Shown: positions 4,611-6,406 of the stretch, one piece after another
Numbering within the stretch: the stretch's first letter is position 1
Layout: the number at the start of each line of letters is the position of its first letter
Sequence record: PZ452582.1
DNA: 64,000 nucleotides
DNA from: a phage
Direction: 5' to 3' (one strand)
Made by a program: the position numbers and the translations under genes
Notes under the pieces: generated by a model
Told to the model about the DNA's origin: nothing
The model's input: only the letters and a program-made list of their open reading frames with translations
The model's database searches: none

Positions 4611-5216
4611 ATGAAAATGCAAAGTGATTTCAATTCAATGTTTGAAGAGTTCCAAAGACAGGTTGATGTTCCAGACCAATTATTAAATGCTCTTAAACGT
4701 ATGGCAGAAGGACGTAATTATTATTGGGGTTCTTCATATGAAACTGATGAAAGTCTTTCTGGATTTTATAAAGGTAAAAAGTCTTTAATACGTCCTGGAA
4801 TACTTATTAACAGTATTGAATCAATTCATTTATTAACATGCGATTTTGACGTTGAATTTACTGATTTTGTTTCTCCTGAATGGACGGTCTGTTATTTAAA
4901 CGACGATTATGATTATCTTGGCGTTTATAGTTTAAGTGATGCATGGTTTAAACGTAATTTACAAAAGTCAAATTTATTCTATATTGATACTACTGTAAAA
5001 TTTCAGGGCAAGAAATATTTCTTTACTCTTATAGTTGATTCTGAAACGAAGCATGAAAATAAACGTATTCTTAGTAAAAAGAATATCTTAACTATTGTCG
5101 ATGATCTTTTTGATAAATTCGTAGAAAATCCCAATTTTGAAAGCGATTTATTATTAGAAAAATTTGTGAAGGAATGCAGAGAATATGTCAAAGCCATCAA
5201 TGTATCTTCCAAGTAA
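4611..5216 (+). CDS. hypothetical protein (201 aa)
   Basis: SD ggagtaagtagga; C-terminal FVKECR motif shared with the three downstream genes. Confidence 0.6.
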   Translation: MKMQSDFNSMFEEFQRQVDVPDQLLNALKRMAEGRNYYWGSSYETDESLSGFYKGKKSLIRPGILINSIESIHLLTCDFDVEFTDFVSPEWTVCYLNDDYDYLGVYSLSDAWFKRNLQKSNLFYIDTTVKFQGKKYFFTLIVDSETKHENKRILSKKNILTIVDDLFDKFVENPNFESDLLLEKFVKECREYVKAINVSSK

Positions 5217-5577
5217 ACCCTTAAAGTATGAATTAAAGCGTCAGATAATTTCTACTGATGTGTTAATAGGTCCTGTGGTAGCTGTATCATTTGTGATTCT
5301 GCTGATTGCTGGAATGGTTATAGACGTTATGACTGATATTGAATCTGGTGCAATATTTGGAGCAACACTAATTCTTCCATTGGTAGTTCCGCTTTTATTA
5401 GTACCTATAAATTGGATAGGATATTGGTATCAAGGAAGACACTATCGTAAACGTGTACGTGATTGGAAAGCTCAGTGTAAAAAGATTAAAAAGGAACATC
5501 AGCTTAAACTTGCTGCGCATGAATTTGATGAAATTATGAAATTTGTTAAGGAATCACGATGCAAAAGCCAAAACTAA
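5185..5577 (+). CDS. small membrane protein (130 aa, two predicted TM helices)
   Basis: Hydrophobic core; basic C-terminus; overlaps upstream gene. Confidence 0.55.
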   Translation: MSKPSMYLPSKPLKYELKRQIISTDVLIGPVVAVSFVILLIAGMVIDVMTDIESGAIFGATLILPLVVPLLLVPINWIGYWYQGRHYRKRVRDWKAQCKKIKKEHQLKLAAHEFDEIMKFVKESRCKSQN

Positions 5578-5921
5578 ATAAAGTCAAATATTCTCTTCCT
5601 GAGGCACTATTAATTCTTGCCGTATCAGCATTTGCAGCTCTTGCGGGTAGTCTTTTTGGATTGTTAATTGACTGTCTTATTTTAAACATTGACGGCACAG
5701 TAAATATAATAGAAGTTTGGAGTGAACTTCACTATACTAAAATTATTTCATTATTTTCATTCTTTGGTACAATGTTATATTTTCATTATGATAATTTTAA
5801 AATAAATTGGCAAAGAAAAAAGGATTACAAAATACAATTAAAGGAATATAATAGCTACATGTCTTATATTGAAAAAGAATCAATGGAAGAGTTTGTGAGT
5901 GATTGTAGGAAAATTAAATGA
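5559..5921 (+). CDS. small membrane protein (120 aa), paralog-like
   Basis: Two hydrophobic segments; C-terminal EEFVSDCRKIK; start overlaps upstream stop. Confidence 0.55.
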   Translation: MQKPKLNKVKYSLPEALLILAVSAFAALAGSLFGLLIDCLILNIDGTVNIIEVWSELHYTKIISLFSFFGTMLYFHYDNFKINWQRKKDYKIQLKEYNSYMSYIEKESMEEFVSDCRKIK

Positions 5922-6402
5922 TTTTAAAAACTCGCTGGTATGATTTAGATGATGGGGATGATGGCATTTCAGTTGATAGAGTTGACTGGAATGGTTGTTC
6001 CGAAGATATGAAAAATTTGTTGATTAGGGAGTTTAGAATGGAATATCAAGCAGCTAAGCCATCTATTATAACAGATGATAAATTCGTGTGTATTCATAAT
6101 GGTCGTGCTAAGTTAACGAACGCTGATTGGTTCACAGATAAAATTATGATTCTGTGGTATATTATTAGTCTTCCTGTGACATCATTCGTATTTTACTTTT
6201 TTATAAAAAATCCAATGGACAGAATAGGAGATTGGATTCTTTTAACCATACTTGTTAATATTTTTACAGCAGCAATATTATCAGGAATATGGTGCATATT
6301 CATTGAAATGCCATGGCGTTTACGCAGACAGCAAAAGATTTTTGATGAAAAGAAATACGCTCAAAATTTAAATAACTTTATCACTGAATGCAGGAAATTA
6401 AA

Positions 6403-6406
<4 letters not shown>
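5918..6406 (+). CDS. membrane protein (162 aa), paralog-like
   Basis: TM segments; C-terminal [11 protein letters not shown]; ATGA overlap with upstream gene. Confidence 0.55.

Follow-up and report, generated by a model that had tools for sequence, protein, structure and literature searches.

Four consecutive genes of a T4-like phage, e.5, e.4, e.3 and e.2, end in a common C-terminal tail of the form F[VI]x[ED][CS]R. In our judgement this tail is probably a cytoplasmic, amphipathic peptide motif that is under selection at the peptide level and shares its codons with the ribosome-binding site of the next gene; it has also served as a microhomology joint at least once. The genes lie in a stretch of 64,000 nucleotides (sequence record PZ452582.1), here called the window, which belongs to the genus Tequatrovirus, its DNA being 92-98% identical to several hundred Tequatrovirus genomes. 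Gene names (e.2-e.6 and others) were taken from the annotation of RB7, vB_SsoM_113 and T4. The four genes and their tails are as follows:

4611-5216, + strand: e.5, 201 aa, soluble, without a transmembrane (TM) segment; C-terminus ...LLLEKFVKECREYVKAINVSSK; family phrog_2607
5163-5180, + strand: e.5 tail FVKECR; codons AAG GAA (5169-5174) form the Shine-Dalgarno sequence (SD) for e.4
5185-5577, + strand: e.4, 130 aa, two-TM protein; C-terminus ...EIMKFVKESRCKSQN
5458-5490, + strand: internal tail-like copy in e.4, RDWKAQCKKIK, residues 92-102
5542-5559, + strand: e.4 tail FVKESR, with the Cys shifted to +1 (SRCK); AAG GAA (5548-5553) forms the SD for e.3
5559-5921, + strand: e.3, 120 aa, membrane protein; C-terminus ...SMEEFVSDCRKIK
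5892-5909, + strand: e.3 tail FVSDCR; AGGAA (5907-5911, Arg-Lys codons) forms the SD for e.2
5918-6406, + strand: e.2, 162 aa, with a soluble N-terminal domain, two TM segments and the tail
6377-6394, + strand: e.2 tail FITECR; AGGAA (6392-6396) forms the SD for nudE

That four genes in a row share a tail had been proposed in a preliminary description of this DNA, and the proposal is borne out at the scale of the whole window. The pattern F[VI].[ED][CS]R has five matches in the six-frame translation of the 64 kb (128,000 residues), four of which are the C-termini of e.5, e.4, e.3 and e.2. Among 112 crude gene calls the motif falls within the final 20 residues of exactly four, which are consecutive (P = 1.8e-5 given four hits). 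With a tail score defined as the mean pairwise BLOSUM62 score over the last 25 aa, the e.5-e.2 set scores 29.8, the highest of 109 consecutive four-gene sets (15.7 +/- 3.1) and a value matched by none of 200,000 random gene sets. The motif was not found in the 120-169 kb segment of T4. One could suppose that such tails converge by chance or composition: a C-terminus whose codons must also supply an SD will be rich in K, E, R and G, and SDs are indeed made by K-E and R-K codons here. Codons for F, V/I and C are not purine-rich, however, and together with the counts just given and the recurrence of the motif in six genera, at C-termini only, this already refutes the idea, which we consider barely credible.

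The preliminary description traced the tails to recurring junction DNA, and this part stands for some of the gene pairs only. The 3′ ends of genes (final 60 nt plus 15 nt downstream) were compared by DNA local alignment over the 6216 gene pairs in the window, and the six pairs among the four genes ranked as follows, in DNA and in protein tail:

e.3/e.2: DNA rank 11, protein-tail rank 4
e.5/e.4: DNA rank 31, protein-tail rank 29
e.5/e.3: DNA rank 115, protein-tail rank 6
e.5/e.2: DNA rank 229, protein-tail rank 10
e.4/e.3: DNA rank 1085, protein-tail rank 263
e.4/e.2: DNA rank 2083, protein-tail rank 905

Modest DNA similarity is seen for four pairs, but e.4/e.3 and e.4/e.2 are at background and the protein ranks are better throughout. 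Junction similarity no higher than background, the outcome that the description had itself named as speaking against it, was thus found for two of the six pairs. Because the protein-tail ranks beat the DNA ranks, the tail signal is stronger in protein than in DNA. This bears directly on a competing explanation, in which the junction is a nucleic-acid module (a ribosome-binding and coupling element or a recombination cassette) and the peptide only its read-out. We consider this improbable, given that junction DNA similarity falls below protein similarity and down to background for two pairs.

Codon usage points the same way. In samples of the nudE region from six Tevenvirinae genera (Tequatrovirus, Mosigvirus, Dhakavirus, Karamvirus, Jiaodavirus and Kanagawavirus), four codons (AGA, AGG, CGA, CGT) are used for Arg in the 25 tails, and two each for Cys (TGC, TGT) and Phe (TTT, TTC). 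The Arg codon is AGA in e.5; in e.4 it is CGA in Tequatrovirus and AGA in Mosigvirus; e.3 and e.2 use AGG in Tequatrovirus, Mosigvirus e.3 uses AGA and Dhakavirus e.2 uses CGT. The residue is therefore kept while its codon differs at up to three positions (AGG vs. CGT), and the Cys and Phe codons vary as well, which a nucleic-acid module would not predict. Tequatrovirus tails show no variation at F, C and R, a change at V in one e.3 representative out of 36 and free variation at the x positions; substitutions in the motif are either synonymous (third positions of V, C, S and T) or at x positions. Compared across genera, 5-8 of the 10 motif positions are identical (50-80%), against 32-48% for the remaining protein, and no 10-aa window is better conserved than the motif in the two most divergent e.2 proteins. 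These comparisons show that the tail is conserved as a peptide and not as DNA, and make it likely that it is under peptide-level selection, while being dual-coded with the downstream ribosome-binding site.

The tail is a larger finding than the four genes of the window. It is clade-specific and, in the samples, strictly C-terminal: [FW][VI]xxCR occurs 19 times in the six-genus samples, in each case no more than 13 residues from a C-terminus and never elsewhere (Fisher 7e-16). The broad consensus is Phi-x-x-[F/W]-[I/V]-x-x-C-R followed by basic residues, of which F[VI]x[ED]CR is the T4-type form. Outside Tequatrovirus the carriers are:

Mosigvirus (PhAPEC2): five carriers, namely e.5, e.4, e.3, ORF133c (NFIKECRGK end) and a diverged e.2 (RFITECRNLR end)
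Dhakavirus: e.2, FIEECRK end
Karamvirus (CC31): five genes, four of them consecutive, with FIRMCRK..., FINDCRKARK, FITECRGK..., FISRCRIKR and FIQGIRGTR
Jiaodavirus (phiKp_22): FIKYCRKRVQK, FIKEVRRK, WIRSCRK and FIAKCRAK, plus a degenerate WIKEMK
Kanagawavirus (Entb_45): FVDQCR..., FIKNVRRK, FIKQCRR... and FVKGCRNGRN

RB16, a Pseudotevenvirus outside the Tevenvirinae, has no tail motif around nudE. A restrictive scan of IMG/VR with the back-translated tail plus stop (TTTRTNNNNGAATGYMGNAARTRA) gave 51 matches, of which only those in Dhakavirus e.2 and Mosigvirus e.3 are in frame at real gene ends; the others fall in short or out-of-frame open reading frames (ORFs). Real tails were thus seen in T-even contigs only. 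The carriers themselves are narrowly distributed. e.5 is an orphan with 5 representatives among 1.84 billion proteins (HMMER), all of them e.5 of T-even phages; word-indexed searches with e.3, e.2 and e.5 returned close relatives only; tblastn with Mosigvirus ORF133c matched in Mosigvirus only; and a search for related loci with e.3 gave 4 loci.

The preliminary description was right that each junction carries the SD and start of the next gene: at all four the SD lies within the tail codons, at spacings of 5-10. For e.4 and e.3 it is AAGGAA, encoding K-E, at spacings of 10 and 5, and for e.2 and nudE it is AGGAA within the R-K codons AGG AAA, at a spacing of 6 each, with duplex energies of -4.2 to -6.1 kcal/mol over the four junctions. 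Counted from the Arg codon, the next ATG in the window stands at -1 to +8 nt; the first base of the e.3 ATG is also the final base of that codon. There are no intergenic bases from e.5 through nudE, the overlaps being 32 nt (e.5/e.4), 19 nt (e.4/e.3), 4 nt (e.3/e.2) and 4 nt (e.2/nudE), the last two as ATGA stop/start overlaps at 5918-5921 and 6403-6406. The tail codons thus double as the SD of the next gene, and this dual coding is real. Translational coupling of overlapping genes, with ATGA stop/start overlaps and an SD inside the upstream ORF, is known from phage operons. The present block resembles these in its anatomy, as its genes lie on one strand and start at or before the upstream stop, with AAGGAA or AGGAA 5-10 nt upstream inside the upstream coding sequence. 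From this junction anatomy (overlaps, SDs in tail codons), e.5-e.4-e.3-e.2-nudE may be translated as a coupled polycistron. What sets the block apart is that ordinary coupled junctions share no conserved peptide, whereas here the residues recur with different codons and some tails lie away from starts.

Dual coding fits the nucleic-acid module as well, and over the 25 tails the next ATG stands -1 to +17 nt after Arg in 21. A stretch of ~27 nt at the e.5/e.4 junction is also near-identical between Tequatrovirus and Mosigvirus, with flanks that differ more. The remaining four tails, however, are 31-67 nt from any start and so are not part of any ribosome-binding site there. Since the SD also sits at different positions within the motif, dual coding does not explain the motif. 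Nor do the junction RNAs share a structure (fold z-scores of +0.7, +0.7, -1.75 and +0.7). A consensus scan found no terminator-like site on the + strand of the block, and the promoter-like matches in it are generic (26 vs. 17.4 +/- 4.2 in shuffles).

Recombination within the tail has occurred. The e.2 gene is exactly absent in IME340- and ZN18-like phages, about 30 Tequatrovirus phages in all, which have a chimeric e.3 tail ...FV(S/I)DCRK-LK whose last two residues and following DNA are those of e.2/nudE. A query spanning the hybrid junction matched in one piece in 39 of the best 60 records, from ~30 distinct phages of E. coli, Yersinia and Salmonella. Where T4-type e.3 reads gat tgc agg aaa att aaa tga and e.2 reads gaa tgc agg aaa tta aaa tga, TGCAGGAAA is common to both at the joint; the crossover lies within this tail repeat and joins the nudE start so that coupling is preserved. 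From the sequence the event may be read as a loss or as a gain. The comparison shows that recombination through the tail repeat can leave both the upstream tail and the downstream coupling intact, and that this has happened at least once. Such a crossover is also what a recombination cassette would give, and the proposal of a recombination or coupling module made in the preliminary description is upheld to this extent and in the placement of SDs in the tail codons. It fares less well in that the DNA similarity is modest and, for two pairs, absent. That a module has been copied from junction to junction is likewise hard to reconcile with the missing common RNA structure and with another deletion in the cluster, which used an unrelated 7-nt microhomology. 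Five UFV phages (vB_EcoM-UFV05 and four sister isolates) carry this second event, an in-frame hybrid e.4(1-31)+e.2(87-162) (L065 1501-1821) joined at TCCTGTG in the TM1 regions of e.4 and e.2, which deletes the remaining e.4, all of e.3 and the N-terminal domain of e.2. On these three grounds (modest or absent DNA similarity, no RNA structure, a different microhomology used elsewhere) we conclude that the junction is not a dedicated DNA cassette.

A comparison with the PeSLs of T4-type genomes leads to a similar view. A PeSL consists of an intergenic sigma-70-like early promoter followed by a terminator stem-loop (PMC2839356; see also Comeau et al., 2014, PMC4122927). The tails are similar in being short boundary repeats in a plastic T4-type region, where recombination between two copies adds or removes one gene; the e.2 indel is indeed bounded by two repeat copies, the e.3 and e.2 tails, although this is a single event type. 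They differ in being coding and in sharing only ~9 nt of DNA, and no clear promoter and stem-loop cassette occurs in the block, whose only strong hairpin (4575-4590) lies upstream of e.5.

How the carriers are related matters for a further alternative, in which the tail is a passive relic of tandem duplication, moved to unrelated bodies by deletions and fusions, with no peptide function. Several observations are what such a history would leave. e.4 and e.3 are paralogues over their full length (hhalign with small family alignments, probability 84%, E = 8e-6). The e.5/e.4 and e.4/e.3 junctions are alike on both sides of the start (TTTGT.AAGGAAT ... ATG.CAAAGCC), as expected if the duplication unit included the junction. 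e.4 holds two tail-like copies, the internal one aligning with the C-termini of e.3 and e.2 and being conserved in e.4 of Mosigvirus and Jiaodavirus. Natural hybrids exist in the UFV phages and in the chimeric e.3 tail. The genes are also often disrupted. T4 reference e.2 is annotated with 102 aa (AF158101 67652-67960; L064 3653-3961; L004 2923-3410), and because a frameshift in this record splits the N-terminal domain from a 63-aa ORF with TM2 and the tail, T4 itself may be without an intact e.2. At locus L011 e.5 is split, and in Shigella phage vB_SsoM_113 a single 324-aa coding sequence (L001 2612-3586) is annotated for e.5 and e.4 together, a fusion that results from the loss of 1 nt from an A5 run shortly before the tail, possibly a homopolymer sequencing error.

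A neutral remnant should nevertheless decay faster than the bodies that carry it. The tail is conserved equally or better across genera, is recognisable in six of them on bodies that no longer align, and changes within the motif are synonymous or at x positions, so a passive relic is unlikely. Codon variation, cross-genus conservation and the tails without a ribosome-binding site together make both this and a purely RNA-level reading less likely than selection on the peptide. The profile comparisons also show how far the kinship goes. Only the tail (9-15 columns) aligns by hhalign for e.5/e.3, e.5/e.2 and e.3/e.2 and for each against Mosigvirus ORF133c, and e.4/e.2 is a weak match (E = 0.025). 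A hidden Markov model (HMM) of e.2 matches CC31 gp137 over the region from TM to tail at 1.9e-6 and others at 0.006-0.04 (tiny database). Overall, the e.2, e.3 and e.4 HMMs link two-TM carriers of other genera weakly over this region and soluble carriers by the tail alone. e.5, CC31 gp141, phiKp_22 2360 and 2420 and Entb_45 1198 have no detectable relation to other carriers beyond the tail; e.5 and the other soluble carriers have no TM segments and align over 9-10 tail columns, and do not belong to the two-TM family. The carriers are thus only partly related by sequence, comprising a putative divergent two-TM superfamily (e.4, e.3, e.2 and relatives) and several unrelated soluble proteins. PHROGs accordingly lists e.5, e.4, e.3 and e.2 as four separate families without assigned function. 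In protein databases the e.5 family is tagged PF26876 and the e.2 family PF26896; PF26873 is tagged only on the e.4/e.2 hybrid P0096 and would cover the N-terminal part of e.4. The pattern recalls the tandem paralogue families of small ORFans in the T4 hyperplastic regions (e.g., alt.-1/alt.-2 in the T4 record), to which e.4/e.3 and the weak links to two-TM carriers in other genera conform; the tail differs in also occurring on proteins without detectable relation.

Taken together, the residues kept while codons change, the restriction to C-termini, the unrelated carriers and the 4 of 25 tails off ribosome-binding sites favour a shared functional motif, one of the two options that the preliminary description had put forward. 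As to where it would act, e.4 has two clear TM segments (residues 31-49 and 57-75), as does e.2 (78-96 and 111-129), and e.3 has one (19-37) and a weaker second hydrophobic stretch. The statement that three of the four are two-TM proteins therefore holds for e.4 and e.2 and is uncertain for e.3, e.5 having none. By the positive-inside rule, flanking charges place the C-terminal side of TM2 in the cytoplasm in e.4 and e.2; with e.5 lacking TM segments, all four tails should be cytoplasmic. Hydrophobic residues in the tail are spaced i, i+3, i+4, i+7, with a helical hydrophobic moment of 1.1-1.7. AlphaFold2 (AF2) models place the e.5 tail in a terminal helix at 180-195 after a loop (pLDDT 60) and give e.2 a helix at 99-161 in which TM2 extends to residue 161 (pLDDT 53). 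The tail is thus predicted to be helical and amphipathic.

Short C-terminal elements of this kind are familiar from docking motifs such as the C-tail of single-stranded DNA-binding protein (SSB) and clamp-binding motifs, and from the C-terminal membrane-targeting helices of MinD and FtsA. Like them, the tail is a short helical amphipathic element at the extreme end of unrelated bodies, although its sequence resembles none of them. A generic in-plane membrane anchor, that is an amphipathic helix with a basic end and no specific docking, would suit the helical moment and the basic residues after Arg, as well as the position of the tail, which is cytoplasmic and membrane-adjacent in the two-TM carriers and is also found on soluble proteins of the same cluster. 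Targeting helices tolerate wide variation, however, whereas here F, I/V, C and R are near-invariant across genera, and the hydrophobic face amounts to about four residues only; we therefore find a generic anchor doubtful. Docking is the role that we consider most likely, though tentatively. The tail would then be a docking element common to the cluster: as a short helix in the cytoplasm it would bind one partner, other carriers or the inner face of the membrane. It would be borne by accessory early proteins encoded beside nudE and e in the Tevenvirinae, and the motif would have spread by tandem duplication of two-TM genes and by deletions and fusions that retained the downstream ribosome-binding site.

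Several observations weigh against a peptide motif with such a role. Within the e.4 lineage S, I or V takes the place of Cys, and some genera have no acidic residue, so that the motif tolerates change at positions expected to be essential. Dhakavirus has a single clear carrier (e.2) in the region examined, and an obligatory hetero-assembly among carriers is therefore disfavored. The AF2 confidence values of 53-60 make the helix assignment weak. No function emerged from a local copy of Pfam-A (sub-threshold matches only), NCBIfam, PADLOC, sequence search of the PDB or Foldseek with the e.5 model. Finally, as 21 of the 25 motifs abut the next start, a contribution at the RNA level is not fully separable from selection on the peptide. 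The AF2 models of e.5 and e.2 were too poor to assign a fold, and the top Foldseek match of the e.5 model in the PDB, to small alarmone synthetases (E 0.016, TM-score 0.16), was rejected. Full-text literature searches by gene name returned nothing relevant, and the main text of two T4 genome-wide fitness studies does not mention e.2-e.6 or nudE.

Another short terminal peptide is known from this group of phages. T4 internal proteins carry an N-terminal capsid targeting sequence (CTS) with the consensus MKTY(Q/K)EFIxE, whose role was reportedly described by Mullaney and Black and which is cleaved after Glu by the prohead protease. Tail and CTS are alike in being short terminal peptides on otherwise unrelated proteins of one genome region and in having Phi-x-x-F-I-x-E in common. 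The 12-mer TTTATCACTGAA, encoding FITE, occurs only twice in the window (~0.05 expected), at 6377-6388 in the e.2 tail and at 7879-7890 in an Ip4-like CTS (MKTYQEFITEA). They differ in several ways: the CTS is N-terminal and lacks C-R, the tail Glu is kept only in Tequatrovirus, Mosigvirus and Dhakavirus, and three of the carriers are integral membrane proteins. Membership of the tail in the CTS family was rejected on its C-terminal position, on the C-R missing from the CTS and on the loss of Glu in other genera.

A more speculative form of the peptide motif, to which we give little credence at present, is a C-terminal address tag of T-even phages as a counterpart of the N-terminal CTS, in which one phage or host factor reads Phi-x-x-F-I-x-x-C-R. 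The reader, which would sort, modify or time-limit the tagged early proteins, might be a membrane hub, a protease, an adaptor or an enzyme that modifies Arg or Cys (e.g., the phage ADP-ribosyltransferases). A tag laid over the ribosome-binding site would permit in-frame gene swaps in which tag and coupling are both retained. If true, T4 biology would have two terminal sorting signals, the CTS and this one. Whichever role applies, e.2-e.5 and their relatives are without known function although few viruses have been studied as closely as T4, and the tail provides an experimental handle on this ORFan block, with about three to five proteins per sampled region in six Tevenvirinae genera. It is also a clean case of dual coding, in that the same nucleotides spell a peptide motif and the ribosome-binding site of the next gene, and such repeats let genes drop in and out precisely, as with e.2, leaving the operon intact.

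The neighborhood of the four genes is organized as follows:

3976-4569: e.6
4575-4590, + strand: GC-rich UUCG hairpin between e.6 and e.5, stem GGGGC/GCCCC
6403-6843, + strand: nudE (e.1), Nudix hydrolase (PF00293, 3.6e-13), last gene of the block
6881-7375: e (lysozyme)
7435-7851: denV

The hairpin (-14.5 kcal/mol fold in a 66-nt context) is the upstream border of the gap-free block e.5-e.4-e.3-e.2-nudE. At the other end the start of nudE is ambiguous between 6388 and 6403. The T4 record gives it 151 aa from an ATG within the e.2 tail codons GAA TGC, without an SD; a start at 6403 (146 aa), which has AGGAA at a spacing of 6 and is the choice of most records, is preferred. Between nudE and the SD of lysozyme e the T4 late-promoter box TATAAATA occurs twice (6847-6854 and 6860-6867), and e is preceded by the strong SD TAGGAGGTA. 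In some GenBank and RefSeq records homologues of e.3 are labelled 'sulfurtransferase' or 'DNA primase' and e.6 is labelled 'host specificity protein'; the family searches of this analysis gave no backing for these names.

Common C-terminal tails of other kinds were also seen. In other genera the same region holds a second one, W-x-(S/P)-S-S-x-x-C, which ends runs of small soluble proteins (L005 3357-4151; L069 1445-2524 and 2871-3068; L006 62-286), for example GAWVSSSALC, GGWVASSHTC, QGWVSSSYSC, GVWISSSEMC and NGWQSSSYQC. Elsewhere in the window the adjacent genes 52824-53456 and 53458-53814 share the tail SIDDQIFNAFMN(K/R)G and are the best gene 3′-end pair in both DNA (47) and protein (70); the gene from 53816 has a capsid-targeting-like N-terminus, MKTYKEFIKED. 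The adjacent genes 15638-16183 and 16190-16711, which are alike in their C-terminal 25 residues (score 45, the second highest in the window), are probably tandem paralogues.

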